DNA from: Candidatus Hecatella orcuttiae
GTDB taxonomy: Archaea > Thermoproteota > Bathyarchaeia > Hecatellales > Hecatellaceae
Direction of reading: 5' to 3'
Length of the DNA: 64,000 nucleotides
Assembly (NCBI GenBank): GCA_002011035.2
Contig: MTLY02000001.1
Span: 256,001-320,000 of the forward strand
Position 1 is the first letter of the stretch. Each line of letters starts with the position of its first letter. Below the pieces are notes generated by a model. It made no database searches. It had not been told where the DNA came from and worked only from the letters and a program-made list of their open reading frames with translations. The position numbers and the translations under genes are program-made. This document shows, piece after piece, positions 15,002 through 46,942 of the stretch.

Positions 15002-15769
15002 CTACCCCCTAGGCGGCCTCACGGGGACACCTAGCTTCATCAACTCCCTCTTTATGTCCGCCACGGTATACTGCCGGTAGTGGAACACGGAGGCCGCTAG
15101 GGCGGCGTCGGCTTTTCCCTCAGTTAAGGCTTGGTAGATGTGCTGGGGTTCCCCAGCGCCTCCGGAGGCTATGACGGGAATGTTCACCGCTTCGGCGACG
15201 GCTCTGGTAAGTTTTATGTCGTAGCCAACTCTCGTCCCGTCGGCGTCCATGCTGGTGAGAAGGATTTCCCCGGCTCCCAGCCTTTCCACTTTCTTAGCCC
15301 ACTCCACCGCGTTGAGGCCTGTGGGAGTGCGTCCTCCGGTGATGTAAACTTCCCAGAAGCTCTCCCTCACATAGAGGGCGTCGATGGCTACCACGATGCA
15401 CTGGCTTCCGAATCTTTCCGCTCCCTTCCTCACTATTTCAGGGTCTCTGACCGCGGCGGTGTTGATGGAAACCTTGTCGGCTCCCGCCTCCAAGAGCGCT
15501 TCCATGTCTTCCAAACTCCGAACCCCGCCTCCCACCGTGAAAGGTATGAAGAGGTTTTCCGCCGTCTTCTTCACCACGTTGACCATGGTGGCTCTTCCCT
15601 CCGGAGAGGCGCCAACGTCCAAGAAAACCAGCTCGTCGGCTCCCTGCTCATCGTACATCAGAGCCAAGGCTGGAGGGTCTCCGGCATGGCGGAGTCCCTT
15701 GAAGTGGATGCCTTTGACGACGACTCCGTTGAGGACATCGAGGCATGGGATTATGCGCTTGGTTAACGT
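15002..15769 (-). CDS. hisF: imidazole glycerol phosphate synthase cyclase subunit; probable ACG start
   Basis: The frame extends upstream of the track ORF to ACG TTA ACC AAG CGC ATA ATC CCA TGC CTC GAT GTC = (M)[11 protein letters not shown]; also [29 protein letters not shown]. Confidence 0.95.
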
Positions 15770-16360
15770 CTACAAGACCCCCTTGAGGCTGGGCGGCTTT
15801 TTCTCCTCCGCCTCCCTCAACCTCGCTGCCTCTGCCAATGCTCGGCCTAAGGCCTTGAAGGCAGCTTCAGCCTTGTGGTGACTGTTTAAGCCGCGGATGG
15901 CTACGATATGCAGGTTGAAGCGGCCTCCTTCCGCCAGCGACCTGAAAAAGTGGTCCACCATCTCGGAGGAAAGCTCCCCCAGCTTCGGCTCCTTGAACCT
16001 CAGGTTGGAGCGGTAGTAGGGTCTCCCTGAAAGGTCTATGGAGACCATTATCAGGGCGTCGTCCATGGGTAGGACGGCGCTTCCGAAGCGGTTGATTCCC
16101 TTCTTGTCGCCGAGGGCCTTATCCAAGGCCTGCCCTAGGACCAAGCCTAAGTCCTCCACCATATGGTGGTCGTCGTAGACGGGGCCTTTTTCTTCGGCTG
16201 AGGCTTCGAGGGTGAAGGAGCCGTGGAAGGCCATGGACCTAAGCATGTGCTCTAAGAAAGGCTTGCCCACCTGCAGCTTAACCTCTCCGGGCTTGTCGAG
16301 GTTGACCGCTACCTTGACGTAGGTTTCCTCCGTCTTCCGTTCAACCTTAGCCTGCCGCAT
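15770..16360 (-). CDS. hisB: imidazoleglycerol-phosphate dehydratase (monofunctional)
   Basis: [37 protein letters not shown]. Confidence 0.96.
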
Positions 16361-17102
16361 TCCTAACTATCTCCTTCGCTTCCTTTAACGTAAAGACTCC
16401 CTCATATAAGGCCCTTCCAACCACAGCGCCCCAGACTCCCGCCTTTGCCAAGTGGAGGAGGTCTTGAAGGGAGGACACTCCACCCGCGTAGATGACGGGT
16501 TTATCCGTAGAGTCTACAACCTTTCTAACCAACCCCGTATCCAGTCCGCTTAACGTCCCTTCCACATTCACATCCGTGTAGAGAAAAGCCGCCACCTCCT
16601 GCCGGGTGAAGAACCGTATGAGGTTGAAGGGGGAACCTGCTGCCTCTGCAGTCCAGCCTCTGGTCACCACCCTCCCCCCTCTGGAGTCTAAGGCCACGAT
16701 AACCCGGTCGCCGCCTACACGGTTTAGGAAGACTGAAATCGCCTGAGGTCTTTCCACGGCGACGGTTCCCAGGATAACCCACCGAGCCCCCGCCTCCACC
16801 AGTTCCCGGGCGTCCTCCACCCGCCTGATGCCGCCGCCTACTTCCACAGGGATGCGGAGGCTTCTGATGATTTTTTTCACGGTTTCCCTGTTTTTCCTGC
16901 TGCCTGTGAAGGCCGCGTCTAGATCTACCACGTGGAGAATTTCCGCTCCTTCCGCTTCCCAAGCCTCAGCTACTTTCAAGGGATCGTCCGAGATCTCCCG
17001 CCCTGTTCCGGGTTTTCCTTGGACAAGTTTGACGCATTTTCCATCTTGGATGTCGACGGAGGGTATCACCTTCATCGGCTGGGGGCGCTTCCCTTCTTTC
17101 AC
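16347..17102 (-). CDS. hisA: ProFAR isomerase
   Basis: VIPSVDIQDGKCVKLVQG, LHVVDLD, VGGGIR, VGRALY. Confidence 0.96.
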   Translation of the reverse strand: MKEGKRPQPMKVIPSVDIQDGKCVKLVQGKPGTGREISDDPLKVAEAWEAEGAEILHVVDLDAAFTGSRKNRETVKKIIRSLRIPVEVGGGIRRVEDARELVEAGARWVILGTVAVERPQAISVFLNRVGGDRVIVALDSRGGRVVTRGWTAEAAGSPFNLIRFFTRQEVAAFLYTDVNVEGTLSGLDTGLVRKVVDSTDKPVIYAGGVSSLQDLLHLAKAGVWGAVVGRALYEGVFTLKEAKEIVRNAAG

Positions 17103-17956
17103 GGGACAACCCTCTCCACGGGTAGGACTATGATGTCTCTGGCTCCAGCCGTCTTAACCGAGCTTATGACATGGGGGATTTCCCCCTCCTCGACAACAGA
17201 GTACACCTCCCACATGGGGACGGGAGCCTCAACCTTCGCCAACGTGGGGCCGCCCATGGAAGGGAGGACACCTAGAACCCGCTGCAGAGCTTCTTCGGGA
17301 ACGTTCATCATCAGGAGCTTCTTTTTTCTAGCCATTAAAACACTTCGGAGAGCGGTGGTGATTTCCTTTATCTTCTCTCCTTTCTCCGCCAAGGCCTTCT
17401 TGTTGACTATTAGCCTAGCCGAGGACCTCAGAACCTCCTCCACAATCCTCAGACCGTGAATTTTCAAGGTGGCCCCGGTGTCGACGATGTCTAACACAGC
17501 CTCTGCCACATTCATAAGGGGCGTGATCTCTACGGCTCCTGAGACCTTCACTATCTTAGCCTTCATACCTTTAACCTTGAGGTAGTTGCCGGCTATGGAA
17601 GGATATTTGGTGGCAATTCTAGTCTGAGCGGTTAGGTTTCGGGGAGACTCTATCCCTGACTCTTCAGGGGCGGCTAGAACTATCCGGCAGCCTCCGAACT
17701 CCAAGTCAAGAAGCTCAGCCACTTCCGCTCCGCTTTCCACGACGTAATCGTAACCTGTGACGCCCAAGTCTACTGCTCCTCCTTCCACCAACGTCGGTAT
17801 GTCCGAGGCTCTGGCTAGGACTATGGAAAGCCAAGGAATCACCGTGGATAGGTAAAGAGAGCGTGTTTTCCAGTTTGATGGCGCTAGGCCTGCTTTCGTT
17901 AAGAGTCTGACGGAGGGCTTGTGAAGGCGGCCTTTGTTGGGTATGGCGATGGTTAT
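17099..17956 (-). CDS. hisG: ATP phosphoribosyltransferase (long form); non-canonical start or frameshifted 5' end
   Basis: The frame extends upstream to ITIAIPNKGRL; also RASDIP, DLGVTGYD, IATKYP, GAVE, DIVDTGATL and the C-terminal regulatory domain. No in-frame ATG/GTG/TTG precedes the conserved N-terminus. Confidence 0.93.
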   Translation of the reverse strand: MTIAIPNKGRLHKPSVRLLTKAGLAPSNWKTRSLYLSTVIPWLSIVLARASDIPTLVEGGAVDLGVTGYDYVVESGAEVAELLDLEFGGCRIVLAAPEESGIESPRNLTAQTRIATKYPSIAGNYLKVKGMKAKIVKVSGAVEITPLMNVAEAVLDIVDTGATLKIHGLRIVEEVLRSSARLIVNKKALAEKGEKIKEITTALRSVLMARKKKLLMMNVPEEALQRVLGVLPSMGGPTLAKVEAPVPMWEVYSVVEEGEIPHVISSVKTAGARDIIVLPVERVVP

Positions 17957-17975
17957 TCGGATTTTTCATCCCTTC

Positions 17976-18056
17976 TTGTGGGAAATTTGTGGGTTTAAAC
18001 CCATAATATACACATAAGTATATAAACTTTCCCGCACCAATACATAGTATTACAAG
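17976..18056. promoter_or_regulatory. divergent his/regulator promoter with palindromic operator candidate
   Basis: TATATAAA near 18019-18026 can be read on both strands; TGGGTTTAAACCCA palindrome at 17990-18003; TTGTGGG direct repeat. Confidence 0.55.
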
Positions 18057-18473
18057 GTGAGAGCTACGCGCATCTCAGAAATCATCCGCATAGACAACCG
18101 AGGAAGAGTGATCATCCCCGCTTCCATCCGAGAAGCCTTCGGCCTGAGAGAAGAAGCCTATGTAATGTTGATGGCGGACTTGGAAAGCCAAGAAGTGAAA
18201 TTCATCCCCTTCGCCGACCCCGACGCCAAGCTCTTCGAAGTAAAACTCTCCCTCACCGACGTGCGGGGGGCGCTGGCCAAGGCAGCCATGAAAATGGCGG
18301 AGCTGGGAGTAGACCTCCTCTCCACCCAATCCAGAACCCTGCAAAGGGGAAAGTCCGCCGAGTGGCATGCCATCGTCGACCTCTCCAAGTGCAAGCTTAC
18401 GCTGGGCGAGCTTAAGCGCAAGCTGGTGGAAGAGGGAGCTGCTAAACACGTGGAGATAAAACAGTTCGGGTGA
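18057..18473 (+). CDS. AbrB/MazE-type DNA-binding domain fused to an ACT domain; putative amino-acid-responsive regulator
   Basis: IDNRGRVIIPASIREAFGL (AbrB), then LSLTDVRGALAKAAMKMAELGVDLLS (ACT). Confidence 0.82.
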   Translation: MRATRISEIIRIDNRGRVIIPASIREAFGLREEAYVMLMADLESQEVKFIPFADPDAKLFEVKLSLTDVRGALAKAAMKMAELGVDLLSTQSRTLQRGKSAEWHAIVDLSKCKLTLGELKRKLVEEGAAKHVEIKQFG

Positions 18474-18558
18474 ATTTTGATTCGTGAAATGTAAAAGCTT
18501 AAAAAGTTAAGTTGTGATTATTATACCTACATTTGAAGAAGGTACGATGATTTAGAAA

Positions 18559-18732
18559 ATGAAAGTCAAATGCCCTGAATGCGGCGCGGAATTCGACGCT
18601 CCCGACGACGTGATAGTAGGGGAAATCGTCAGCTGCCCGGACTGCGGCTTAGAGCTTGAAGTCAGCAGCATCCAGTCTGGAAAAGTCGACGTTAAAATTG
18701 TCAGAATTTCCGGCGAAGACTGGGGGGAATGA
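18559..18732 (+). CDS. lysW: amino-group carrier protein LysW
   Basis: Not in the ORF track. MKVKCPECG...SCPDCG...SGEDWGE*: Zn ribbon plus the EDWGE C-terminus. Confidence 0.95.
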   Translation: MKVKCPECGAEFDAPDDVIVGEIVSCPDCGLELEVSSIQSGKVDVKIVRISGEDWGE

Positions 18733-18744
18733 TCAGTCACCTCC

Positions 18745-19590
18745 ATAGGCATCCTCTACGATCAGATCCGTTGGGAAGAAAAAGCCATAATCGAAACCGC
18801 CAAGTCTAGGGGAACACCTGTTAAGCTCTTAGACTCGAAATCGATGTTCTTCGAACTGGGAGCCCGGGAGCGCGGAGGAGAAAAATTCGCCGACATAATT
18901 CTCCAACGCTGCGTAAGCTATTTCAGAAACCTTCACCTCACCGCCCTCCTAGAGAAAAGAGGCTACACAGTCGTTAACCCTTACAAGGTTACCCAGCTCT
19001 GCGGCAACAAGCTTCTGACAACCCTCGCCTTGACAAAGGCTAAGATACCGACCCCTAAAACCTACGTAGCCTTCACCAAAGAGAGCGCGTTGGAAGCCTT
19101 GGATAAAATGGGCTACCCGGCGATGTTGAAGCCTGTGGTGGGAAGCTGGGGGAGACTCATCATCCCCTTGAAGGACAGGGAGACAGCGGGAGCCGTCTTG
19201 GAGGAAAGGGAGTACATGTTCCCCCTCTACCAAGTTTACTACCTTCAGGAAATGGTCAAAAGGCCGCCGAGGGACATCAGGGTCTTCGTCATCGGAGACG
19301 AGGCAGTGACAGGCATCTACCGTTATTCCTTCTTGGACATCAAGACCAACATCGCCCGGGGAGGAAAAGCTGAACCTTGCCGCATAACTCCTGAGCTTCA
19401 AGAGCTAAGCCTCAAGGCAGCGGAGGCTGTGGGCAGCGGAATTCTCGGAGTTGACATGATGGAAACCGATGAGGGAATCGTGGTACATGAAATTAACCAC
19501 ACCATCGAATTTCAGGCAACCGCCACGGTGACGAAGGTCAACATACCTAAATACATCGTAGGCTATTTGCTTAGAAAAGCCAGAAAATAG
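18745..19590 (+). CDS. lysX: LysW ligase (RimK/ATP-grasp; LysX/ArgX type); start codon unresolved
   Basis: The in-frame upstream extension reads IGILYDQIRWEEKA; also LQRCVS, CGNKL, KPVVGSWGR, RDIRVFVIG, TNIARGG, HEINHTIEF. Confidence 0.9.
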   Translation: MGILYDQIRWEEKAIIETAKSRGTPVKLLDSKSMFFELGARERGGEKFADIILQRCVSYFRNLHLTALLEKRGYTVVNPYKVTQLCGNKLLTTLALTKAKIPTPKTYVAFTKESALEALDKMGYPAMLKPVVGSWGRLIIPLKDRETAGAVLEEREYMFPLYQVYYLQEMVKRPPRDIRVFVIGDEAVTGIYRYSFLDIKTNIARGGKAEPCRITPELQELSLKAAEAVGSGILGVDMMETDEGIVVHEINHTIEFQATATVTKVNIPKYIVGYLLRKARK

Positions 19591-19611
19591 CTGCAGGCGA
19601 GGGCTCAGCCT

Positions 19612-20670
19612 ATGCTTCGAGTAGGCGTCATCGGAGGCTCAGGTTACACCGGAGGAGAACTTCTCAGGCTGCTTTTGGGCCACCCCCAAGTTGAAATAGC
19701 TCAGACAACCTCCAGAGAATACGGCGGCGAATACGTTTTCCGAGTTCACCCCAACCTCAGAGGGCTGACCAGCCTCCAGTTCGCCAAACCAGACTTGGAG
19801 AAGACGGTGAAGGAATGCGACCTTGTCTTCACGGCGACCCCCCACGGAGTTTCCTCCAAGCTTGTTCCCCGGCTGCTGGAGGCGGGGTTGAAGGTGATAG
19901 ACTTGAGCGCAGATTTCAGGCTGAAGAATCCTGAGGGCTACCCCCAATGGTACGGCTGGAGTCACCCTCACCCCGAACTGCTTCAGAAAGCCGTCTACGG
20001 CGTTCCTGAACTTCACCGGAGCGACATAGGGAAAGCTCAGCTTGTCGCTTGCCCGGGCTGCATGGCTGTGGCCAGCATTCTGGCTTTAGCCCCAGCGGCC
20101 AAAGAAAGGCTTTTCGAAGAGGACAAGGTTGTGGTCGACGTTAAGATCGGGTCTTCAGGAGCCGGAGCCAAACCCTCCCGGTCAACCCACCATGCTGAGA
20201 GAGCCGGCGTCATCCGGCCTTACAAGCCCACAGGTCACAGGCATACGGCGGAGATCGAGCAGGAGTTGAACTGGGTTGCAGGCTCCGGGGCGGTGAAGAT
20301 TTCCATGTCCGCCCACGCCGTCAACGTTGTGAGAGGCATCCTCGCCACCGCGCATCTTTTCCTGAAAGAGAAGATAGGGCTGGCGGAGGTTTGGAAAGCC
20401 TACCGGGGGTTCTACCAGAACGAGCCCTTCATCCGCTTGGTCAGGGATAAGAAAGGCCTCTACAAGCTTCCCGACCCCAAAACCGTCATCGGCTCCAACT
20501 TCTGCGATATAGGCTTCGACTTGGATAAGCATGTCAACAGGCTGGTGGTCTTGGGGGCTATCGACAACCTGATGAAGGGAGCCGCCGGCATAGCCGTTCA
20601 AAACCTTAACCTGATGATGGGCTGGGATGAAAGAACCGGGTTACTGCCGCCTGCCCTCTACCCTGTCTGA
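19612..20670 (+). CDS. lysY: LysW-gamma-aminoadipyl/glutamyl-phosphate reductase (ArgC family)
   Basis: GGSGYTGGELLRLL, DLSADFR, ACPGC, GSSGAG, HRHTAEI, DNLMKGAAG. Confidence 0.93.
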   Translation: MLRVGVIGGSGYTGGELLRLLLGHPQVEIAQTTSREYGGEYVFRVHPNLRGLTSLQFAKPDLEKTVKECDLVFTATPHGVSSKLVPRLLEAGLKVIDLSADFRLKNPEGYPQWYGWSHPHPELLQKAVYGVPELHRSDIGKAQLVACPGCMAVASILALAPAAKERLFEEDKVVVDVKIGSSGAGAKPSRSTHHAERAGVIRPYKPTGHRHTAEIEQELNWVAGSGAVKISMSAHAVNVVRGILATAHLFLKEKIGLAEVWKAYRGFYQNEPFIRLVRDKKGLYKLPDPKTVIGSNFCDIGFDLDKHVNRLVVLGAIDNLMKGAAGIAVQNLNLMMGWDERTGLLPPALYPV

Positions 20671-20801
20671 CGGCTTCCCTACCCTGCTCCCGGTCATTTT
20701 TGCCTCGAGGTTGAAGGCTGAGTTTTCAGCTATAGGTTTAAGAAGACGGCTTCATTTTGTTCTGGTTCATGAAGAAGAAGGGTTCCTACCGCGGCAATGC
20801 A

Positions 20802-21383
20802 ATGGATAGACTAGTGAGGATAGCTGAGGAGGGGGGAGCCGCGGAGGTCAAGGTCATCAACGCCAAGGACATCGTTGTGGATAAGAGGGTTAGGATGAAA
20901 TGTGCCATTCCCCCATGCAACCAGTACGGGAAAAACCTGATGTGCCCGCCTTACGTCATGTCCGTGGAAGAGTTCACCCAAATCCTCGGTAAATACAGAA
21001 AAGCCTTGCTGGTTCAGCTTGAAACTAACACCGACTCCTCAGACAAAGCGGACGCGCCCCTCACAGGAGAGCTTATAGAAACGCTAGAGGAAAAAACAGG
21101 CCTAGCAGAATGGTCGCTGAAGCTCCATAGGCTGATAAACCTCCTTGAAACCGAAGCTTTCAAGCTAGGGTTCCCCTTCGCCACAGGCTTCACTTGCGGA
21201 CACTGCCGCCTCTGTGAAGAATGCGTGCCCCCCGGGAACCCTTGCCGAAAACCCTTTGAGGCTAGGCCTTCCATGGAGGCCATGGGCATCGACGTCTCCA
21301 AGACCTGTGAAAAAGCTGGCATTCCGGTTTCCTTTTCTTCAAACCGAGCCATAAAGTTGACAGGGCTGGTCTTGCTTTATTAG
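20802..21383 (+). CDS. DUF2284-type predicted metal-binding protein
   Basis: VRMKCAIPPCNQYGKNLMCPP, CGHCRLCEEC, CRKPFEARPSMEAMGIDV. Confidence 0.8.
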   Translation: MDRLVRIAEEGGAAEVKVINAKDIVVDKRVRMKCAIPPCNQYGKNLMCPPYVMSVEEFTQILGKYRKALLVQLETNTDSSDKADAPLTGELIETLEEKTGLAEWSLKLHRLINLLETEAFKLGFPFATGFTCGHCRLCEECVPPGNPCRKPFEARPSMEAMGIDVSKTCEKAGIPVSFSSNRAIKLTGLVLLY

Positions 21384-21477
21384 CTGCGAAGCTTCTGACT
21401 GAAAGCTAAAATACGCCTTCAGACTTTTCTAAAAGGAACCGCGAATTACCAGCGACGGTTCTCAGGAAGGTTTCAGA

Positions 21478-22296
21478 TTGGCTGACAGGTTCCTTGTGGT
21501 AAAGGTGGGGGGCAGCCTTCTCAAATCAGGTTTTCCTCCCACGCTACTGAAAGACCTGAAAAGCGCGGCCCTAAACCATCGGCTCACCCTCGTCCACGGA
21601 GGGGCGGCTCTGGTTACGGAGACCGCCCAGAAGATGGGGAAAGAGCAGAAGTTCATCGTTTCTCCCGATGGAATGAAAAGCAGGTACACCGACAGGGAGA
21701 CCATGGAAGTCTACACCATGGTCATGGCGGGTAAAATCAACAAGCAGGTCGTGGCTTTTCTGCAGAGCGGAGGGGTTAACGCCATAGGCCTCAGCGGGGC
21801 GGACGGCCAGCTTCTCAGAGCTTCCAGAAAGAAAAAACTCATCATCTTGGATGAAAGGGGAAGAAAAGTGGCTATTGAAGGCGGCTACACGGGGAAAATC
21901 GAAGAGGTGAACCCCCAGCCTCTCCGCTGCCTGATGGACTTGGGCTACATGCCTGTGGTGGCCCCCATAGCCGTGGACGATGAGTTCCAGCTTCTAAACG
22001 TAGACAGCGACAGGGCTGCCGCCTACATAGCCAAAGCCCTGAAGGCTGACTGCCTCATCCTCTGCACCGATGTGGAGGGACTTATCCTCAACGGCGCTCT
22101 CGTCAAAAGGCTGAAGCTGGAAGAGGCTCGGGAAAACCTCCCCAAGATCGGGCATGGTATGAGAAAGAAGATTTACGCTGCGGTGGAAGCCTTAGAAGGA
22201 GGCGTCAGAGAAGTGGTGGTGACGAAGGGCGCCTTGGAAACCCCCCTAACCTCAGCTTTAAACCATGAGGCGGGAACCCTCATTGTCCCTCAGTAG
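21478..22296 (+). CDS. lysZ: LysW-aminoadipate/glutamate kinase
   Basis: VVKVGG, VHGG, SRYTD, AIGLSGADG, GGYTGKI, NVDSDRAA, GMRKK. Confidence 0.93.
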   Translation: MADRFLVVKVGGSLLKSGFPPTLLKDLKSAALNHRLTLVHGGAALVTETAQKMGKEQKFIVSPDGMKSRYTDRETMEVYTMVMAGKINKQVVAFLQSGGVNAIGLSGADGQLLRASRKKKLIILDERGRKVAIEGGYTGKIEEVNPQPLRCLMDLGYMPVVAPIAVDDEFQLLNVDSDRAAAYIAKALKADCLILCTDVEGLILNGALVKRLKLEEARENLPKIGHGMRKKIYAAVEALEGGVREVVVTKGALETPLTSALNHEAGTLIVPQ

Positions 22297-23485
22297 AGAT
22301 GAGATAATCCGCTGGGAAAACAGCCAGCTGGCCGACGTCTACCACCGGAGAAACCTCGCCGTAGTCCGGGGTAAGGACGCCCTCATCTGGGATGCGGATG
22401 GAAAGCAGTACATCGACTGCATGGCCGGCTTCGGCGCTGCTTTCATAGGCCACTGCAACGAAAAAGTGGTAAAGGCCCTTCAAACCCAAGCTGAGAAACT
22501 CATAGCATGCCACGGGTCCCTCTACAGTGAGGCTAGAGCTCAGCTTCTCCGAAAATTGGCCTCCATAGCTCCGAAGGGGTTGGACAAAGTTTTTCTGTCC
22601 AACAGCGGCTCCGAAGCCGTGGAGCTGGCTTTAAAGGTTTCAAGAAAGTTCACGGGAAAGAAAGAGTTCATAGCCATGATGAGAAGCTACCATGGGAAAA
22701 CCATGGGCTCCCTCTCCGTCACCTGGAACGCCAAATACCGAGCTCCCTTCGAGCCGCTCATTCCCCAGGTGAAATTTGTTCCCTATGGGCGGTCGGAGGA
22801 AGTCAGGAAAGCCCTGACGGCTGACACAGCCGCCATCATCGTGGAGCCAGTTCAGGGAGAAGGCGGAGTCTACGTGGCTCCGGAAGGCTACCTGAAGGAA
22901 CTCAGGGAGCTGGCCGACCGCCAAGGGGCACTGCTGATCTTCGATGAAATTCAAACAGGCTTCGGGAGAACTGGAAAGATGTTCGCCCTCGAACACTGGA
23001 ATGTCACCCCCGACATCCTGTGTCTGGCAAAGGCAGCGGGCAGCGGTGTCCCCATAGGCATCACCCTAGCTGGCGAGGAGGTCATGGGCTCGCTGAAGAT
23101 AGGGGAACACTCCGCCACCTTTGGGGGAAACCCCCTCTCCTGCATTGCAACCGTCGCCACCATCGACGTGCTGGTGGAAGGACGACTCTGGGAGGCAGCA
23201 GCTCGCTTAGGGAAGCACTTCTCAAGCCGTCTAAGAGAGCTGGGTGAAAGACATAGAATTGTAAGGGAGGTCCGAGGCTTAGGCTTGATGCTGGGGATGG
23301 AGCTTCGCTTCGACGTCTTGGACATCCTTAACAAGATGCTGGAGAAGGGGGTTCTGATAATGAACGCGGGGGTGAAGACTCTCCGTTTTCTCCCTCCCTG
23401 CGTAATCTCCCCAAGCCAATTGGATACCGTCGTCGAGAAGCTGGAAGAATGTCTGAGGGAAAAAGAAGCATCCATAGCTAGATAA
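22265..23485 (+). CDS. lysJ: LysW-lysine/ornithine aminotransferase (class III)
   Basis: SNSGSEAVE, YHGKT, EPVQGEGG, FDEIQTGFGRTG, LAKA, TFGGNP; true start is probably slightly downstream. Confidence 0.9.
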   Translation: MRREPSLSLSRDEIIRWENSQLADVYHRRNLAVVRGKDALIWDADGKQYIDCMAGFGAAFIGHCNEKVVKALQTQAEKLIACHGSLYSEARAQLLRKLASIAPKGLDKVFLSNSGSEAVELALKVSRKFTGKKEFIAMMRSYHGKTMGSLSVTWNAKYRAPFEPLIPQVKFVPYGRSEEVRKALTADTAAIIVEPVQGEGGVYVAPEGYLKELRELADRQGALLIFDEIQTGFGRTGKMFALEHWNVTPDILCLAKAAGSGVPIGITLAGEEVMGSLKIGEHSATFGGNPLSCIATVATIDVLVEGRLWEAAARLGKHFSSRLRELGERHRIVREVRGLGLMLGMELRFDVLDILNKMLEKGVLIMNAGVKTLRFLPPCVISPSQLDTVVEKLEECLREKEASIAR

Positions 23486-23507
23486 ACGTGAAAGGAGGTG
23501 CAGTAGA

Positions 23508-23669: not shown

Positions 23670-23677
23670 AACAGCCT

Positions 23678-24460: not shown

Positions 24461-24470
24461 CTTCCCTTTT

Positions 24471-35565: not shown

Positions 35566-35721
35566 TGAGAGAAGAAAAAGAGGTTTATAACTTTAACGTT
35601 GACACATTAAACCGCATTCAGTTAGCTGAATGCTCTTGGGGAAAGCTATTTAAGCAGACTTTGAAAAATACTGCTAACTCTTCCACCTCTAGTAATTGCC
35701 GAGAAGCGGAGAAGACCTCTG

Positions 35722-37317: not shown

Positions 37318-37323
37318 AGTAGG

Positions 37324-37809: not shown

Positions 37810-37815
37810 AAACAG

Positions 37816-39286: not shown

Positions 39287-39671
39287 GGGCTAGGATTCGG
39301 GCTGCGAGCCAAGCTGCGTTTTCTCCATTGTCGATGCCCACGCAGGCGGTGGGGACTCCCTTGGGCATTTGAACCATAGAGAGCAGAGCGTCGAGGCCTC
39401 CCAGCTTCACGCTTTTGGGCACCCCTATGACGGGTTTGAGGGTTCGGGAGGCGATGAAGCCGGGAAGATGCGCGGAGAGGCCGGCTATGCCTATAAAAAC
39501 TTCTGCCTCTGACTTTTCCAAGTATTTCTCCAGTTCCTTGGGGGTTCGGTGGGCGGAGAGAACTTTGACCTCATAGGGTATGCCCAAGGTTTTTAGGATT
39601 TTTTCTGCCTTGGAAGCTATGTCCCTGTCGTTTTCGCTTCCCATCAGAATAGATACTTTGACTTTCCTCAT
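39246..39671 (-). CDS. purE: AIR carboxylase / N5-CAIR mutase
   Basis: [37 protein letters not shown]. Confidence 0.95.
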
Positions 39672-39688
39672 TTTTATTCAAATCCTCT

Positions 39689-41176
39689 TCAGGCTTTTAG
39701 GACGAGTTTACCTTTTCTGGGAATCCATTCGACGGTTTTCCCCACCAGCCCTTTTTTAGCCCTGTACTTGTAGACAGCCCGCATAAGCTGGGCCTGCTCT
39801 ATTCTGACTTCCAGAAGTTCCCTTGAGCCAATGTCGCTTCGGTGATAAACACCCCAGCCGTCTCCCAGTTTCACGTAGGGCATGCAGGCTTCGGCCTTTT
39901 CCCCAGCCTCCATGATGGTTTCGCCTTTGGCGAAGATTTCCACCAGCCGGGAGCCGCCTGAATAGATGGCGCCGTCAGGTTTCTGGTCGGTGGATGCGAA
40001 GTAAACTCGGCCTCCATGCCTTCTGATGGCTTCGAGGTCTATGGAGAGAGGGTGACCTTTGGCCAGCTCTCTCTGGTCCGGATAGCCTCTTGGAGAGACA
40101 CATTTCACCACGGAGGCAGCATTCTCCAACTCCAGCCTGATTTTGTGGAGTTTCTCATCGAGGATGGCCTCGCATATTTCCACCATGTCGGTTTTCAGAA
40201 GGGGAAGCACGTTGACTGCCTCCGGGTCTCCCAGCCGGGAGTAGAATTCGATGATGGTGGGGCCCCAGCTGGCTGTGAGCATCATCTGCCCTGAAACCAC
40301 TCCCTTGTATTTTTCTCCTGTTTCCGCCTCCACCGCCTTCACGCACTTGTTCACAATGCTGACAGACTGCCGGTATTCCTCCATGGTGATGAAAGGGAGG
40401 AGAGGACCTTTCCCTGCGATGGAACCCATTCCCCCAGTTTCAGGACCTATGTCCATTTCGAAGGCGTTTTTGTTGTCTTGAACTAAGGGCAGAGGTCTGA
40501 CGGTTCTGCCGTCGGTGAAGGCTTGAAGCGTGTACTCAGGCCCGTCTACTTTTTCTTCAATGAGGATGCGGTCTTCGATGTCCGTGTAATCTTTCATGTG
40601 TTCGCTGTAGATGATTTTAGCATGTTCTTCTTTGACGTGGGATTTCTCCGCGCTTAGGTAGGCTTGGAGGTCTGCCACCACTTTGACCCCCTTCCCTCCC
40701 GCCTGTCTCGCAGGCTTTAAAGCTAAGCTTTCCGCGTACTCCCGCAGATAGGCGACGGCTTCGCTTACCTCCTTGAAAACCTTGAACCTCAGCCTTCCGG
40801 GGATCTTATACTTCCACATAAGCCTTCTCATGGAAGCCTTGGACATCTCCAACTCCGCAGGACCCTTCTTCGCCCCCACGCAGGGTATTCCCGCCTTCTC
40901 CAAGGTGTCAGCCACACCGTGGAAAAGAGGCTCCTCAGGCCCTACGAAAACCCAATCCACATGGAATTTTTCAGCCGCCTCCCAGACAGTTTGAGGGTTC
41001 TTGGAATCCCCTAGGAAAACTTCGCCGCCTGTTTTTTGGCAGAGGGACGCTATGCCTGGATTGTTCAGCCTCATAACAGCGTAAAGCCTAGGGTTTTGGG
41101 GGCTGCGGCAGATAGCTTCCGCTATGGCGTGCTCTCTGCCGCCTTCACCGACTAGCAAGACCTTAACGGCCATCAT
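39689..41176 (-). CDS. purD: phosphoribosylamine-glycine ligase
   Basis: GEGGREHA, VGPEEPL, AGGKGV, GPETGGMG, RLGDPE. Confidence 0.95.
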   Translation of the reverse strand: MMAVKVLLVGEGGREHAIAEAICRSPQNPRLYAVMRLNNPGIASLCQKTGGEVFLGDSKNPQTVWEAAEKFHVDWVFVGPEEPLFHGVADTLEKAGIPCVGAKKGPAELEMSKASMRRLMWKYKIPGRLRFKVFKEVSEAVAYLREYAESLALKPARQAGGKGVKVVADLQAYLSAEKSHVKEEHAKIIYSEHMKDYTDIEDRILIEEKVDGPEYTLQAFTDGRTVRPLPLVQDNKNAFEMDIGPETGGMGSIAGKGPLLPFITMEEYRQSVSIVNKCVKAVEAETGEKYKGVVSGQMMLTASWGPTIIEFYSRLGDPEAVNVLPLLKTDMVEICEAILDEKLHKIRLELENAASVVKCVSPRGYPDQRELAKGHPLSIDLEAIRRHGGRVYFASTDQKPDGAIYSGGSRLVEIFAKGETIMEAGEKAEACMPYVKLGDGWGVYHRSDIGSRELLEVRIEQAQLMRAVYKYRAKKGLVGKTVEWIPRKGKLVLKA

Positions 41177-42572
41177 CAGCGCCTCCCTCTTCTGGTGGAA
41201 GAGGATACTTACCTGAAAAACATCCCAAACACAGACGGCTTTTGGGAATGCCTAGGGCGTCGGTTAACCCTCGAAGACTCAGCCAGTGGAAACTGTCCGC
41301 CCCCACCACCTTTCCCACCTCTCCCGGAGTTAGGTTAGCAGCTATGAGTTCGTCTTCCGGAGGAACTTCAGTGCCGTAGGGGCATGAGGCCACCAGTCTA
41401 GGGCTGCCCACCCGGACGTGAATTTCCTTAGCGCCCATTCTATTCCTCATGAGGCTCACCGTGTTTTTGGTGGTTGTCCCTCGGACGACGCTGTCGTCGA
41501 CGAGAACTATTTTTTTCCCCGCCATAGCAGTCTTGATGGGGTTGAGTTTAAGCTGAACTCCCACCAGCCTTTCAAATTGAGTGGGCTTGATGGCGCTTCT
41601 GACCCTTCTCCCTGTCTGCACAAAACCCAGACCTAGGGGAGTTCCTGTTTCGTTGGAGTAGGCAACCGCAAAGGGGATGGCTGTCTCCGGGACACCTAAC
41701 ACCACCTCCGCATCCCTGACAGGGTTTTCTTTCGCCAGTCTTTTCCCGATCTCCATTCTCGCGTTGTAGACGCTGCTTCCGTTGATCCAAGAATCAGGCC
41801 TAGCGAGATAGACGTGTTCAAAGGCGCAATAGCTGGGCTGAGGCTTCACAGCCTGTTTTCTTTTGATGCTTTGGGAGTCGAAATAGTAGATTTCCCCCGG
41901 CTTTAGGTCGCTTTTGAAATCCGCCCCTATGACGTCCACAGCACAGCTTTCGGAGGCTACAACCCCGTAGTCAAAGCCGAAGCTTCCTATGGTTAAAGGC
42001 TTAACCCCTCGGGGATCCCGGGCGGCCACCATTTCACCTTTTCCTGTTAAGATAACAGTCGAGTATACGCCTTTCACCGTCTTCATCAGCTCAGCCATGG
42101 CGTCTAGGGGATGCTTTTCCTCCAATTCTCGGGAGAAAAGAGCTGCGAAAAGTTCAGCTTCGCTTTGGGGAACAAAGGGCTTGACCCTTCCTGTCAATTC
42201 CTTAACATTGAGAATTTTTCCATCGAAACATAAGGCAACTTTTTGAGGCCCCTCTACCAGCGCAGGCTGGATTTTTCCAAGCTCTTTCTCTGGCATAGCT
42301 GTTACGCAGCCTATGCCCATCCATCCTTTCAGGGCCTCTATGATTTTAGGCTCTGAGAACACTTGGTCTACGAGGCCTGGGGCCTTGTGATGGTAGAGGT
42401 TTCCATTCCCTGCGGAGGTGACAATTCCGCAGGTTTCTTGACCCCTGTGCTGGAGAGCCATGAGGCCGTAGTAGAGGAAGCGAGCCATCTTCCAAAGGCG
42501 GCTGAAGCCGTAAATGCCTATTATTCCACTGCCCACGGTAGACGGCCTCCTTCTTTCACCTCTAAACTTCAT
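41163..42572 (-). CDS. amidophosphoribosyltransferase-like paralog lacking the N-terminal catalytic Cys
   Basis: SGIIGIYG where PurF has CGxxG; keeps LQHRGQE, ARDPRGVKPL, CAFEHVYLARPDS, LVDDSVVRGTT. Confidence 0.85.
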   Translation of the reverse strand: MKFRGERRRPSTVGSGIIGIYGFSRLWKMARFLYYGLMALQHRGQETCGIVTSAGNGNLYHHKAPGLVDQVFSEPKIIEALKGWMGIGCVTAMPEKELGKIQPALVEGPQKVALCFDGKILNVKELTGRVKPFVPQSEAELFAALFSRELEEKHPLDAMAELMKTVKGVYSTVILTGKGEMVAARDPRGVKPLTIGSFGFDYGVVASESCAVDVIGADFKSDLKPGEIYYFDSQSIKRKQAVKPQPSYCAFEHVYLARPDSWINGSSVYNARMEIGKRLAKENPVRDAEVVLGVPETAIPFAVAYSNETGTPLGLGFVQTGRRVRSAIKPTQFERLVGVQLKLNPIKTAMAGKKIVLVDDSVVRGTTTKNTVSLMRNRMGAKEIHVRVGSPRLVASCPYGTEVPPEDELIAANLTPGEVGKVVGADSFHWLSLRGLTDALGIPKSRLCLGCFSGKYPLPPEEGGADDGR

Positions 42573-44005
42573 CCTTCCGCTTCAATGTATCGGACGCCTT
42601 CTGCAGGCATCTTCACCCGCATTCTATCGGCTAGCCTTTGGGCCTTAGGAGTAGGGTAGACGCCTGTTAAACAGGCCAAGCAGAGCTCTTCTTCCCTCAG
42701 GCCTATGGCTTCCACCAGTCCTCGGACAGTTTGATACTCCAAGGAGTCAGCCCCTATAAGGCGGCGTATTTCCTCCACAGTTTTCTGGGATGCGATAAGT
42801 TCTTGGTGGGTCGCTATATCTATGCCGTAAAAACAAGGGGAGATCAGAGGGGGACAGGTTATTCGAACATGGACTTCCCTAGCCCCAGCCCTTCTGACCA
42901 TGTCGACGATCTTCCGGATGGTGGTGCCCCTCACGATGCTGTCGTCCACGAGGATAACACGCTGCCCTCGGAGCACCGATTTTAGGGGGTTGAGCTTCAT
43001 CTTCACCGCATCATCCCTCGCCGCCTGAACAGGCATGATGAAGGTTCTGTGAATGTAGCGGTTTTTAATCAAGCCTTCTGCCACTGGAAGGCTGCTCATC
43101 CTAGACATGCCTTCAGCCGCAGGCCTAGAGGTGTCAGGCACAGGCACTATCACATCGGCGTTGCAGTCGAAGTCCTTAGCTAATCTTTTTCCTAGGCTGA
43201 TTCTCACATCGTAAACGCTTTTCCCCTCCATCACCGAATCAGGCCGGCTGAAGTAGACGTACTCAAACATGCAATGAGCCCTCCGACAGGGAGCAACGAA
43301 CCGCTTCTTCACTAGGTGGGAATCCGTAATCAGCAGAGCTTCCCCCGGTTTAACATCCGACAGAAACTCGCCGCCAACCGAGTCCAAGGCCACACTCTCA
43401 GAGGCGCAGGCGGCAAAGTCTTCTCCCCTGCCATAGCACAGCGGCCTCAGCCCAAGGGGGTCCCGGAAGGCTAACAGTTCACTTTGGTCGGTTAGGCAGA
43501 GGGCGGCGTAGCCTCCCTCCACCACCTCAGCCAAGGCGGAGAGGGCCTCAAAAACGTCCCCTGTTTCCCTCCGCTTCTCCAAGAGAATGTTGAGCAAGAT
43601 TTCAGCATCGGAGGACGACATGAGAGGAATACGTTTCTTCCACATCAGCCCTTTCAGCTCCATGTAGTTGACCAAGTTTCCGTTGTGGCAGAAGGCCATC
43701 TCCCCGATGCAGAAAGGCTGCGCATTGTCCACGGAGGAAAGACCCGTGGTCGAGTAGCGTACATGTCCCAAGCCTATTTTACCTCTGAGACTTAGGGCTT
43801 CCTTCAAAAGGGAGCCGCTTCCCACCAAGCCCATGGTTTTCTTGGCCACCAACCGGCCTTCAGGCTCAGCTAAGGCCATTCCAGCCGATTCTTGCCCCCT
43901 GTGCTGGAGGGCCATCAGGCCGGTGAAGATGCGGCCGGCCGCAGGCTGTGTGGTGCAGCATACTCCGAACACACCGCAGGCTTCCCGAGGATAGTCGTGG
44001 CTCAA
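42569..44005 (-). CDS. purF: amidophosphoribosyltransferase
   Basis: Propeptide then CGVFG; QHRGQE, GHVRYST, HNGN, CMFEYVYFSRPDS, VDDSIVRGTT, CFYGID, CLAC. Confidence 0.95.
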   Translation of the reverse strand: MSHDYPREACGVFGVCCTTQPAAGRIFTGLMALQHRGQESAGMALAEPEGRLVAKKTMGLVGSGSLLKEALSLRGKIGLGHVRYSTTGLSSVDNAQPFCIGEMAFCHNGNLVNYMELKGLMWKKRIPLMSSSDAEILLNILLEKRRETGDVFEALSALAEVVEGGYAALCLTDQSELLAFRDPLGLRPLCYGRGEDFAACASESVALDSVGGEFLSDVKPGEALLITDSHLVKKRFVAPCRRAHCMFEYVYFSRPDSVMEGKSVYDVRISLGKRLAKDFDCNADVIVPVPDTSRPAAEGMSRMSSLPVAEGLIKNRYIHRTFIMPVQAARDDAVKMKLNPLKSVLRGQRVILVDDSIVRGTTIRKIVDMVRRAGAREVHVRITCPPLISPCFYGIDIATHQELIASQKTVEEIRRLIGADSLEYQTVRGLVEAIGLREEELCLACLTGVYPTPKAQRLADRMRVKMPAEGVRYIEAEG

Positions 44006-46230
44006 TTTTTTCCCTCCATGATCCTAGGAATAGCCTCCCTCCACCTTTCTTCGATCTCAGCCAAGTCAACTTGGATGACAGGGGTTCCGGAGGCTTGTAG
44101 GAGGAAGACGGCGTCATCCACCACTCTGCCTACCTTTCTGGCAGGTGCGCCTTCTCGGCTTGCCAACTTCAAAACCACATCAACATTTTCCTCGTTGACT
44201 GCGAGAATGAACCTTGAATAGGTCTCGGAAAAGAGCAGTTCGTCTTTACGGGTTACCCCTCTGCAAGGAACATGTTCCAACTCAATTTTCAATCCCAGTT
44301 TCCCTTGGACAGCCATCAGTGCCAGCGCCACGGCTAGACCGCCTTTGGAGCAGTCGTGGGCTGCGGAAACATACCCAGCTCGGATGGCCTTCAAAACAGT
44401 TTGAAGGGAGGCTTTCTCCCTAGCCGCCTCAGCTGCAGGAGGCCTGCCTTGGTTTATCCGGTGAATCTCGCAGTAATATTCTGAGCCACCCATCTCCGGG
44501 CGGGTCTCCCCCACCACCAGAACACAGTCTCCGGGGTTTTTGAGGGCTAGGGTTGTTATCCATTGAAGGTCTTCTATCAGTCCCAACATAACCACGACGG
44601 TAGAAGGCTTAACAGCCACCCCTGTCTCGCTGTCCTCGTTGTAGAAGCTGACATTTCCTCCCACGCATGGAATGCCCAAGCCTCTGCCCATGTAAGCTAG
44701 GCCTTCTATTCCTCTCTTAAACTGCCAAAAGATCTCCGGCTTTTCCGGATTGCCGAAGTTACAGCAGTCAGCATAGGCGACGGGTTCAGCTCCTACGCAG
44801 ACCACATTCCTAGCTGCCTCCGCCAAGGCTCCGGCATGGCCGTAGAAGGGATCAAGGTAAGCGTGGCGGCTGTTACAATCAGCCTTGAGGGCTATGGCCT
44901 TGGGGATTTCAAGAAGCCGGAGCACGGCAGCATCACCTTCTCCGGGCTTCACCACCGACCTAACTCCCACCTCATGGTCATATTGCTGGAAGACCCACTC
45001 TTGGCTGGCTATGTTAGGCAAGGCCAGGAGGCTGAGGAAAACCTCGTTCAGATTCTCAGGTTCCTTGGGCGTCGGATAGTTCTGACCATCCGCCGGGAGG
45101 CTTGGCTCTTTGGCTTCTCTCCTGATAACAGGTGCTTGAGCTAAGATTTCGGAGGGAACTTCCGCCACCTTTTCACCTTGGAAGAAGACGGAAACATTGC
45201 CACCTTCCGTAACTTTTCCTACGATGGAGTAAGAGAGTCCGTATTTCTCGAAGACTCGGAGAACTTGGGAAAGCCCCTGAGGGTTGACGGCAAAAAGCAT
45301 GCGTTCCTGAGACTCGGAAAGAACCAGCTCATAGGGAGTCATGCCTTCTTCCCTGACGTGAACACGGTCAAGGTTTAGCTCCACCCCTCTGCCTCCTTTA
45401 AAGGACATTTCTGACGCTGCACAGGTTAGGCCGCCTCCTCCCAGATCCTTCAACCCCCTAACCTGTCCTGTTTTCAAAGCTTCCAGAACAGCTTCTATCA
45501 GAAGCTTTTTGGTGAAGGGGTCGCCAATCTGAACCGCAGGCCTGTCTTCCTCCGACTGCTGTCCGATGGTTTTTGAGGCGAAGGTCACCCCGTGGATGCC
45601 GTCCCTTCCAGTGGGACCTCCCACTAAAACTAAAATGTCTCCAGGTTCCTTGAACTCAGCTAAGATAATGTCCTCTCTCTTCGCAAGCCCAACGCAGGCT
45701 ACGTTGACCAAGCAGTTTGTTTCAAAGCTACTGTCAAACTCAACTTCCCCCGCCACCGTGGGAACCCCGATGCAGTTACCGTAGTCGCCTATCCCTCTCA
45801 CCACATGCTTGAAAAGCCACTGGGTGCGCCCTGACCGGGGGTTCCCGAATCTCAGAGAGTCTAAAAGGGCAATAGGCCTGGCTCCAACGCAGAGGACATC
45901 CCTGACGATTCCTCCAACGCCTGTAGCGGCTCCGTTGTAAGGTTCGATGGCAGAGGGGTGGTTGTGGCTTTCAACCTTGAAGGCTACCACGTAGCCGTCC
46001 CCTATGTCCACGATGCCTGAATCGTAACCCGGCCCTACGACGACCCTTGGGGAACGTGAGGGCAACAAGCTCAGCATGGGTCGGCTGCTCTTGTAGGAGC
46101 AGTGTTCGGAATACATGATGTCGAACATGCCCCACTCTACCGGATTTGGCTCTCTTCCCAGCCGCTTCCTTATCTCCTCCGCTTCTTCCCTAGTTAGGTG
46201 GGTTTTTATGGGCGGTGATAGAGTGGACAT
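44002..46230 (-). CDS. purL: FGAM synthase subunit PurL
   Basis: SEHCSYKSS, KVESHNHPS, TGRDGIHG, DLGGGGL, SESQERM, GGNVSFYN. Confidence 0.97.
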   Translation of the reverse strand: MSTLSPPIKTHLTREEAEEIRKRLGREPNPVEWGMFDIMYSEHCSYKSSRPMLSLLPSRSPRVVVGPGYDSGIVDIGDGYVVAFKVESHNHPSAIEPYNGAATGVGGIVRDVLCVGARPIALLDSLRFGNPRSGRTQWLFKHVVRGIGDYGNCIGVPTVAGEVEFDSSFETNCLVNVACVGLAKREDIILAEFKEPGDILVLVGGPTGRDGIHGVTFASKTIGQQSEEDRPAVQIGDPFTKKLLIEAVLEALKTGQVRGLKDLGGGGLTCAASEMSFKGGRGVELNLDRVHVREEGMTPYELVLSESQERMLFAVNPQGLSQVLRVFEKYGLSYSIVGKVTEGGNVSVFFQGEKVAEVPSEILAQAPVIRREAKEPSLPADGQNYPTPKEPENLNEVFLSLLALPNIASQEWVFQQYDHEVGVRSVVKPGEGDAAVLRLLEIPKAIALKADCNSRHAYLDPFYGHAGALAEAARNVVCVGAEPVAYADCCNFGNPEKPEIFWQFKRGIEGLAYMGRGLGIPCVGGNVSFYNEDSETGVAVKPSTVVVMLGLIEDLQWITTLALKNPGDCVLVVGETRPEMGGSEYYCEIHRINQGRPPAAEAAREKASLQTVLKAIRAGYVSAAHDCSKGGLAVALALMAVQGKLGLKIELEHVPCRGVTRKDELLFSETYSRFILAVNEENVDVVLKLASREGAPARKVGRVVDDAVFLLQASGTPVIQVDLAEIEERWREAIPRIMEGKN

Positions 46231-46240
46231 GGTTTTTCCC

Positions 46241-46942
46241 TCAATGTTTGATATAGTCGACCATGGACTGGAAGATCAGCGCACCGTCTCTCCGCCTGCT
46301 AGGGTTGAGGATAGGCTCTGAAGCCCTCTCTGGATGAGGCATGATACCTAGGACATTTCCCCGCTCGTTAGCAATAGCGGCTATGTTCCCAACTGCCCCG
46401 TTAGGATTAGCCTTAGAGGAGGGCTCACCTTTTTCATCCACGTATCTGAACACGATTCGACGGGAGAAGCTAAGGGCCTTGAGGGCTTCTGCCTCATGAA
46501 AGTATCTTCCCTCATGGTGGGCTATGGGCATGTGAAGCATTTGTCCCTCCGAAATGAGGCTGGTGAAAGCGGTGTGGGCTGTTTCACATCGGAGGATAAT
46601 CCACTTGCAGATGAATTTTAAGCTGTCGTTGGGCAGAAAGGCTCCGGGGAGAATTTCAGCTTCGACCAGTATTTGGAAGCCGTTACATATTCCTAAAACT
46701 GGTTTCCCTTCTTCTGCCATGAGTTTAACTTCCTCCATAGCCGGGCTTCTCGCCGCTATAACTCCGCATCTCAAATGATCTCCGTAAGAAAATCCTCCAG
46801 GTAAAACCACGGCATCATAGCCGCTGTGCTTGAATTCCTTATGCCAAACCAGCTCCGTGGGAACGTTTAGAACGTTTTTTAGAACATGGACCACATCTAG
46901 GTCGCAGTTGGAACCGGGAAACTTAATGACAGCAACCCTCGT
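46241..46942 (-). CDS. purQ: FGAM synthase glutaminase subunit PurQ; probable ACG start
   Basis: The frame extends to ACG AGG GTT GCT GTC ATT AAG TTT CCC GGT TCC AAC TGC = (M)RVAVIKFPGSNC; also PGGFSYGD, GICNGFQ, MPHPER. Confidence 0.95.
   Translation of the reverse strand, partial: TRVAVIKFPGSNCDLDVVHVLKNVLNVPTELVWHKEFKHSGYDAVVLPGGFSYGDHLRCGVIAARSPAMEEVKLMAEEGKPVLGICNGFQILVEAEILPGAFLPNDSLKFICKWIILRCETAHTAFTSLISEGQMLHMPIAHHEGRYFHEAEALKALSFSRRIVFRYVDEKGEPSSKANPNGAVGNIAAIANERGNVLGIMPHPERASEPILNPSRRRDGALIFQSMVDYIKH

Follow-up and report, generated by a model that had tools for sequence, protein, structure and literature searches.

In eukaryotes, CUG, GUG, ACG and other codons are read by Met-tRNAi, as set out in part of PMC5666671. 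Archaea share the eukaryote-type core factors aIF1, aIF1A and aIF2, of which aIF1 is presented as the fidelity factor in the pertinent section of PMC6237735. A 2020 review, in its passage on the subject, gives the start codons of archaea as AUG, GUG and UUG only (PMC7531240). Ribosome profiling of Haloferax volcanii placed approximately 30% of the putative alternative initiation sites at near-cognate codons, which are set aside as possible false positives in the part of the study that reports them (PMC7261190). For Escherichia coli, the confirmed non-canonical starts given in the relevant section of 10.1101/063800 are only the AUU codons of infC and pcnB. Here we describe four genes (hisF, hisG, lysX and purQ) in a 64,000-nucleotide stretch of the archaeon Candidatus Hecatella orcuttiae, which lack ATG, GTG or TTG at their conserved N-terminus and are probably translated from near-cognate codons.

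Among the starts listed in NCBI translation table 11 are CTG, ATT, ATC and ATA, while ACG is absent. Translational coupling by termination-reinitiation has reportedly been described for both archaea and bacteria by Huber et al. in 2019. We found no paper in our literature searches in which archaeal housekeeping genes regularly start at ACG or CUG.

Four genes lacking a canonical start codon

The stretch, hereafter the window, corresponds to C1:256001-320000 of a 1.75-Mb genome in three contigs. An earlier note on this DNA (the original prediction) had claimed that in hisF, hisG, lysX and purQ the conserved N-terminus lies upstream of the first ATG, GTG or TTG, with an in-frame stop further upstream. 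Stop-to-stop frames, family models and direct reading of the junctions confirmed both parts of this claim for all four genes. In the NCBIfam full-length models, profile position 1 falls on ACG 15769 (hisF), ATA 17956 (hisG), ATA 18745 (lysX) and ACG 46942 (purQ), that is, on each of the codons that had been named as starts. The bodies of the genes are free of stops and frameshifts, and the full-length models are matched end to end. The G-rich runs resembling a Shine-Dalgarno (SD) sequence, which had been reported 7-9 nt before the starts of hisF, purQ and hisG, are present as well (Table 1).

Table 1. Positions in the window of the start-less genes, their putative start codons and adjoining features
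Feature	Position	Strand	Details
hisF open frame, stop to stop	15002..15769	-	TIGR00735 positions 1-254 of 254 on residues 1-251
hisF, putative start ACG	15767..15769	-	directly after hisB stop TAG 15770..15772, same frame; gap 0 nt
hisF, SD-like run AAGGGGGT	15777..15784	-	7 nt 5' of ACG
purQ, putative start to stop	46241..46942	-	TIGR01737 profile 2-227 on residues 23-251
purQ, putative start ACG	46940..46942	-	2 nt past purS stop TAG 46945..46947
purQ, SD-like run GTGAGGGAG	46951..46959	-	8 nt 5' of ACG, within purS end
hisG open frame, peptide KIRITIAIPNKGRL...	17099..17965	-	TIGR00070 position 1 on residue 4; aligns with relatives' N-termini
hisG, candidate start ATA	17954..17956	-	model position 1; SD run of 4 in register; other in-frame candidate ATC 17960..17962
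hisG, SD-like run AAGGGATGA	ends 17966	-	9 nt 5' of ATA
hisG, out-of-frame ATG 17969..17967 and A5 run	17962..17969	-	one base off hisG frame
lysW, 57 codons, ending EDWGE-TGA	18559..18732	+	read from sequence; stop TGA 18730..18732
lysX open frame	18733..19590	+	lysW frame continued behind TGA; TIGR02144 profile 1-280 on residues 5-284
lysX, candidate start ATA	18745..18747	+	model position 1; alternative ATC 18751
lysX, out-of-frame ATG	18729..18731	+	one base off lysX frame; formed only from GAA-TGA

In the hisF frame, the Pfam His_biosynth match begins at residue 5, and the first canonical start comes only at residue 35 (TTG 15667, 34 codons beyond the ACG). The end of hisB reads GVL-TAG (15772..15770), followed by the opening hisF codons ACG TTA ACC AAG. 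In the case of purQ, position 2 of TIGR01737 lies on residue 23 of the frame, hence position 1 on the ACG (46942..46940), which opens the peptide TRVAVIKFPGSNCD; the first canonical codon is GTG 46894. An in-frame TGA (17968..17966) precedes hisG and is followed by AAA ATC CGA ATA ACC, with the first canonical codon (GTG 17842) 41 codons into the frame. The opening of lysX reads TCA GTC ACC TCC ATA (peptide SVTSIGILYD), profile position 1 of LysX_preATP_grasp stands on residue 5, and the first ATG is found at 18844, 37 codons in.

The gap between the putative start and the upstream stop on the same strand, relevant to termination-reinitiation, is 0 nt in hisF, 2 nt in purQ and 12 nt in lysX. 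hisG is the head of its operon and has no adjoining upstream stop for coupling. A canonical start one frame off just upstream is present in hisG and lysX, and none was seen for hisF and purQ; these two out-of-frame ATGs (17969..17967 and 18729..18731) had been overlooked in the original prediction.

All 19 relatives compared for hisF have ATG, GTG or TTG at the position of the ACG or one codon earlier, and two of them carry the same in-frame TAG, directly followed by ATG or GTG. The purQ ACG aligns exactly with the ATG, GTG and ATG of three relatives, the ones that matched out of five close relatives tried. Thus, the ACG occupies the relatives' start in purQ and, in hisF, that start or the codon after it, whereas the ATA codons of hisG and lysX align with an internal Ile of the relatives and not with their start codon.

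In all five relatives compared (four close ones and G001, of the same family), hisG is in frame from an ATG, and in the g5 relatives it starts in frame with ATG AAA AAC. A 7-nt segment containing the true ATG and the GGTGA in L118 is missing from the hisG region of our genome. Judged from these alignments, hisG has a real 5' frameshift relative to its relatives. In the case of lysX, four relatives show a TAATG overlap with lysW, and the gene is in frame in four of five. Here, ATC is found at the place of the ancestral ATG, together with a one-base shift, and lysX of G001 also lacks a canonical start at the same place (TAA CCT ACG CCA AGC ATA). The absence of frameshifts noted in the original prediction fails at the 5' end of hisG and is doubtful for lysX.

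The ACG of fibrillarin aligns with the GTG of two genomes of the same class, and the 29 other genomes of the phylum that were examined all start this gene canonically. As the orthologues are canonical at the same positions, the non-canonical state appears to be recent and acquired gene by gene rather than conserved. That each genome has its own affected genes fits drift among tolerated start codons.

Assembly noise had already been argued against in the original prediction, and this stands for the three sites that could be compared. Public sequencing runs of eight studies contain the stretch, and contigs of four runs (X1, X5, X7 and X8) were compared over positions 14000-20000. Contigs of X1, which may be the source sample, showed no difference across the whole interval. 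Those of X5, from another study (depth 61-74), showed none over 14000-16686 and 16789-19827, including the hisF, hisG and lysX sites, and those of X8, from a third study, none over 15370-15855 and 17671-18019, including the hisF and hisG sites. X7 contigs covered none of the start sites. Depths of the independent contigs at the three sites were approximately 20-290. The hisF, hisG and lysX sites are thus correctly sequenced, and an assembly error there is ruled out.

Two further features lie close to hisG. The motif (A)TTTCCCAC occurs approximately 10-20 nt 5' of the hisG start region (window 17970-18010, minus strand) in this genome and in four close relatives (L118-L121), and could be a conserved element with a promoter-proximal or regulatory role in the his operon. 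Between hisG and lysW, a small open reading frame (ORF; 18048-18473, plus strand) has, by eye, an AbrB/SpoVT-like N-terminus (RIDNRGRVIIPASIREAFGL) and an ACT-like C-terminal half. Judged in this way, it could encode an amino-acid-responsive regulator between the his and lys clusters.

Extent across the genome and its relatives

Simple codon-usage selection yielded 1807 ORFs in the genome, 286 of which have 8 or more free, coding-like codons ahead of their first canonical start. Among the 143 with at least 15 such codons, 133 stop-to-stop ORFs were scanned against Pfam. By our reading of the tables, the family match begins at least 5 residues 5' of the first canonical start in 26 of the 133; of those, tyrS is a split gene and a PAP2 protein is a weak case. 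On the same reading, approximately 25 of the 1807 ORFs (about 1.4%, or one gene in seventy) lack a canonical start at their conserved N-terminus. This is a lower bound, as 10 short ORFs and a second batch of 143 (8-14 free codons) lie outside the scan. Thus, the pattern extends genome-wide.

The start-less set is functionally mixed. It includes fibrillarin, Top6B, TFB, Csl4, an IPMS-like synthase, Trm5, TrmI, KsgA and CysRS, but also an amino-acid kinase, a B12 radical-SAM enzyme, and ParE and PIN toxins. The essential genes fibrillarin and Top6B each have a single match in the genome. In our reading, the likely start is ACG in five genes (hisF, purQ, Top6B, fibrillarin and ParE) and CTG in approximately 9-11 (Csl4, MoxR, TFB, Trm5, Endo-dU, GT2, TrmI, ArsR and PIN, possibly also PAP2 and Ham1). 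ATT is the likely start of two genes (the B12 radical-SAM enzyme and the amino-acid kinase), and ATA or ATC that of four (hisG, lysX, IPMS and RNase H), while the start codons of DUF2119, ksgA and cysS are unassigned. The original prediction had further proposed that such starts tune the stoichiometry of glutamine amidotransferase subunits. The mixed gene set and the canonical starts of relatives at the same positions speak against this proposal, and the pattern looks like relaxed start-codon choice with turnover rather than conserved tuning of amidotransferase subunits.

The 3' end of the 16S rRNA reads GGATCACCTCCT, which gives the SD consensus GGAGGTGAT. The same GGAGGTGAT is found 5' of canonical starts genome-wide, with its T at -9; the SD-like runs before hisF, purQ and hisG stand at workable spacing. 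For each of the 1807 ORFs, we then scored every codon from the in-frame stop up to the first canonical start for a correctly spaced SD run of 5 or more in front of it. Such a run precedes 15 of 194 ACG codons (7.7%) and 24 of 362 CTG codons (6.6%), and 417 of the 16527 other codons (2.5%). ACG and CTG show the two highest values of all codons, with a joint odds ratio of 2.9 (p = 4e-8). AAG and AGG were not enriched behind SD runs in this test. Within genes, no SD effect was seen for CTG, ACG, ATA, ATT and ATC pooled (odds ratio 0.95).

For a second test we took the 115 ORFs opening immediately after GGTGA, a motif whose TGA is in frame with an optimally spaced start. Their third codon is ATG in 16 cases, GTG in 14, TTG in 18, CTG in 7 and ACG in 5. 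CTG and ACG together account for 12 of 115 at this codon, compared with 3, 6, 5 and 6 at codons 1, 2, 4 and 5, and with 14 of 554 third codons behind other TGA stops (p = 4e-4). The TGA before start-less ORFs mostly closes the SD core GGTGA and is in frame with an optimally spaced start. We discarded 'NTGA' before start-less ORFs as a sign of +1 shifting, since any TGA after A, G or T yields it.

Over all ORFs, the first canonical codon is ATG in 821, TTG in 572 and GTG in 410, an unusually low share of ATG, and at SD-led genes the three are about equally frequent. Since A, G and T are equally used at SD-led starts and C is present as well, discrimination of the first base looks weak. The starts of hisF, purQ, lysX, fibrillarin and Top6B lie between 10 nt before and 12 nt after the upstream stop. 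Coupling was nonetheless rejected as a special cause, because near-cognate sites are no more often coupled (20 of 39 SD-led ACG or CTG sites) than canonical SD-led starts (63 of 143).

The same pipeline was applied to 400 kb each of G001 and of G017, a genome of the same class, and it found 5 start-less ORFs among 437 and 5 among 441, respectively. These cases include ribosomal protein L18, an ArsP permease with ATT behind a 6-nt SD, and TBP. In these relatives (L142:389-979, minus strand, in G001, and L167:16289-16846, plus strand, in G017), L18 apparently starts at ATA behind a perfect AGGAGG, and TBP has no canonical start before its first repeat, which means that highly expressed core genes are affected too. 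Distant controls, run with a more permissive pipeline, yielded no case among the 103 ORFs from 100 kb of G038, the 74 from 21 loci of other classes or the 49 from 50 kb of E. coli K-12. The claim that the lineage tolerates near-cognate starts is supported by the counts from this genome and from its class, as well as by the SD-led ACG and CTG codons.

An IPMS-like gene lacks a canonical start both in this genome, G000 (L109:4500-4585, minus strand), and in G017 (L154:14740-14800, minus strand), which belong to different families. The two copies share AARTGGGGNATH (peptide KWGI[IV]L) and have, out of frame, an ATG or GTG with GGG and a single additional base behind it. This may be either a conserved +1 slip or an ATA/ATC start.

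Several other ORFs encountered in the scan deserve mention. In the DUF2119 gene (L085:811-900, plus strand, C3 near 171,811-171,900), an in-frame ATG stands five codons 5' of a TAG (ATG ACG GCG GGG GCG TAG GCT...), and its N-terminus is a candidate for TAG readthrough or pyrrolysine (Pyl). The split gene tyrS (L059:5500-5586, minus strand, C2 near 176,500-176,586) was dropped from the start-less set. Its N-terminus, up to AYWGFEPSG, lies in one frame and LMHLGTGF in another, and they are separated by a 29-nt GC-rich insert flanked by CCGGA direct repeats, without which the protein reads GFEPSGLMHLG. The insert might be a small mRNA intron, or tyrS, an essential gene, might carry a real frameshift; a single RNA fold over the insert showed no clear bulge-helix-bulge motif. 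Additionally, Hydrolase_4 (L027:5147-5494, minus strand) and AhpC-TSA (L053:7415-7630, plus strand) are isolated ORFs matching only the C-terminal ends of their domains. They look like gene fragments, and the genome thus appears to carry a few decayed genes.

Possible explanations of the missing starts

Near-cognate initiation positioned by SD sequences is, in our judgment, the probable explanation of the start-less genes, and it would be a trait of this genome and apparently of its class. The genes would have truly lost ATG, GTG or TTG from their DNA and would still be translated. Pairing with the SD sequence would place the small ribosomal subunit, and for genes inside an operon, ribosomes just finishing the preceding gene may supply the start site as well. 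The ordinary initiator Met-tRNA would then accept a one-mismatch codon at the P site: ACG in hisF and purQ, and ATA or the neighboring ATC in hisG and lysX. The first base of the start codon would be barely selected, with CTG completing the NTG set and ACG tolerated too. We infer that initiation takes place at these codons, with Met and at a useful rate.

The initiator tRNA looks ordinary, with a CAU anticodon, A1:U72 and a GGG:CCC stem. No second initiator-like tRNA with a CAG or CGU anticodon was seen with ARAGORN, run with and without its intron mode (the former being noisy). Loss of aIF1 is ruled out, as SUI1 was found in the genome. Reassignment of a stop codon was also rejected, since the stops before the 26 ORFs are a mixture of TGA, TAA and TAG and all three end long ORFs.

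A broader reading, which we offer tentatively, is that the class initiates mainly by position (SD register or coupling) with loose reading of the codon, so that NUG and ACG are all working starts. Perhaps, in the same terms, it has a eukaryote-like near-cognate hierarchy in an SD-using archaeon. If this were true, CUG or ACG would open approximately 1-2% of all genes and as many as a fifth or so of those that are strongly SD-led; at the optimal spacing behind GGTGA, 12 CUG or ACG codons stand next to 48 canonical ones. Free drift of start codons from one of these states to another would follow, and in public databases thousands of proteins of this class would have annotations that are too short. 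A bolder variant of it would add a +1 slip right after the start codon in hisG and the leuA-like gene.

Several observations weigh against SD-positioned near-cognate initiation, or against parts of it. No RNA run containing the locus is listed among the public runs searched. In E. coli, near-cognate codons initiate at 1-2% of the AUG level and ACG at about 0.1-1%, according to the relevant part of 10.1101/063800. Across the 1807 ORFs, ATT, ATC and ATA are not enriched behind SD runs, which makes the codon assignments in hisG (ATA) and lysX weak. In lysX, the SD-like TGATC is in register with ACC/TCC and not with ATA. Furthermore, in hisG and lysX, and also in the IPMS gene at another place in the genome, an ATG lies one base off the reading frame, and a +1 frameshift fits these genes equally. 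DUF2119, ksgA and cysS have no near-cognate codon in SD register. In the relatives, the third codon behind GGTGA is ACG in 0 of 27 and 0 of 27 cases. The distant controls are small, and their 0 of 226, against 2.9 expected at the rate of the class, is a weak contrast (P about 0.05). Finally, the contig comparison covers three of the four sites, the purQ base lying outside 14000-20000.

Slippage would concern hisG, lysX and the leuA-like IPMS gene only, with a start at the out-of-frame ATG and a +1 shift within the first codons. In hisG the path would be ATG AAA A|ATC, leading to MKIRITIAIP and an N-terminal peptide MKIRITIAIPNK, as opposed to M-TIAIPNK under an ATA start. The A5 run after ATG 17969 would let Lys-tRNA re-pair, and the peptide in the hisG frame aligns from the first Lys onward (KIRITIAIP versus KPKITFAIP of L119). 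In the IPMS gene, ATG GGG G|ATA here corresponds to GTG GGG T|ATC in G017, with AARTGGGGNATH common to both. The frame of the hisG ATG is also open for 84 codons (17715..17969). However, known +1 shift sites have a 0-frame stop or a rare codon, and neither is found at the putative shift site. In hisG and lysX the shift is not conserved, as hisG in five of five relatives and lysX in four of five are simply in frame. Moreover, the hisG ATG looks like a remnant of the 7-nt deletion, with a G-run that abuts it too closely for the usual SD spacing, and no slippery run follows the lysX ATG, which arises only from GAA-TGA. For these reasons we regard slippage as unlikely. We consider it distinctly improbable that the genes are recent pseudogenes, or that they yield only N-terminally truncated, inactive proteins from the first downstream GTG, TTG or ATG. 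The canonical starts of relatives, which make the losses recent, the real 5' frameshift of hisG and the gene fragments in the genome (the Hydrolase_4 C-terminal piece and the AhpC piece) would agree with decay. Nevertheless, the bodies of all four genes carry no stop or frameshift, the start-less set includes the single-copy, essential fibrillarin and Top6B, and no second hisF was found in the genome. Truncation would cost HisF its CLDV strand, HisG its PNKGRL and PurQ its FPGSNCD, all of them conserved and N-terminal, and the SD association of ACG and CTG is not expected in dead genes.

For hisF only, the TAG between hisB and hisF might be read through, for instance as pyrrolysine, giving a HisB-HisF fusion without a start of its own. 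Both genes are indeed in one frame with only the TAG between them, and ARAGORN found a tRNA-Pyl with anticodon CTA in the genome. Moreover, the MttB and MtmB genes, both outside the window, resume right behind an in-frame stop: the MttB ORF (L039:5366-5851, minus strand, C1:347366-347851) covers only profile positions 341-493 of 500, and the MtmB ORF (L039:12115-12861, minus strand, C1:354115-354861) only positions 197-445 of 450. The stops before them sit at the known pyrrolysine positions, and TAG in this genome is a common stop and, at once, a likely Pyl codon. Readthrough into hisF is still very improbable: TAG is an ordinary stop that ends 210 of 809 long ORFs, the two relatives with the same in-frame TAG give hisF its own ATG or GTG, and purQ, hisG and lysX, which stand behind TAA/TGA or in another frame, would leave the set unexplained. 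Also very improbable is that the codons are sequencing or assembly errors, or that RNA editing restores AUG (from ACG by C-to-U and from AUA by A-to-I). Every case is one base away from ATG. However, three of the four sites read identically in contigs from three different studies, and random mistakes would not gather on start codons behind SD sequences. Editing, in turn, fails for CTG, the commonest variant, which neither known deamination can convert to AUG.

Significance and relation to known initiation systems

If experiments confirm near-cognate initiation in this lineage, it would be the first genome-scale case of ACG and CUG as regular archaeal start codons. The initiation factors of the lineage are of the eukaryotic type, and the finding would thus bear on the evolution of start-codon stringency. 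There is also a practical side: gene callers restricted to ATG, GTG and TTG would truncate approximately 1-2% of the proteins in genomes of this kind. Measured from the putative starts, the residues lost are 34 in hisF, 38 to 40 in hisG, 33 in lysX and 16 in purQ. Such shortened calls would distort both the reconstruction of pathways and the protein databases across a large uncultured group. The hisB-hisF, purS-purQ and nop5-fibrillarin junctions offer concrete native test cases.

Among the described systems, near-cognate initiation in eukaryotes, as presented in part of PMC5666671, shares with ours the one-mismatch codons at the position of the Met, with CUG and ACG prominent. Unlike there, the codon would be chosen here by SD pairing or operon coupling and not by scanning, and it would be the sole start of housekeeping genes rather than the start of an alternative isoform or an upstream open reading frame. 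We see here a probable variant of near-cognate initiation, well supported by sequence statistics and predicted at the RNA and protein level.

With the archaea covered in the cited parts of the reviews, our genome shares the same factors and the involvement of both SD-led and leaderless mRNAs. It differs from the near-cognate sites of H. volcanii, as given in the cited section, in that the near-cognate codons are here the only possible starts of conserved genes. The position of the hisF, purQ, lysX, fibrillarin and Top6B starts near an upstream stop resembles the coupling reported so far, which is said to use canonical starts, unlike the coupling proposed here.

Closest in form are infC and pcnB of E. 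coli, which are likewise SD-led genes with a single near-cognate start that is missed by gene callers. Where only two such genes are confirmed in that bacterium, as far as the cited section goes, the archaeal genome described here would have them at approximately 1.4% of its genes, with ACG among the commonest codons.

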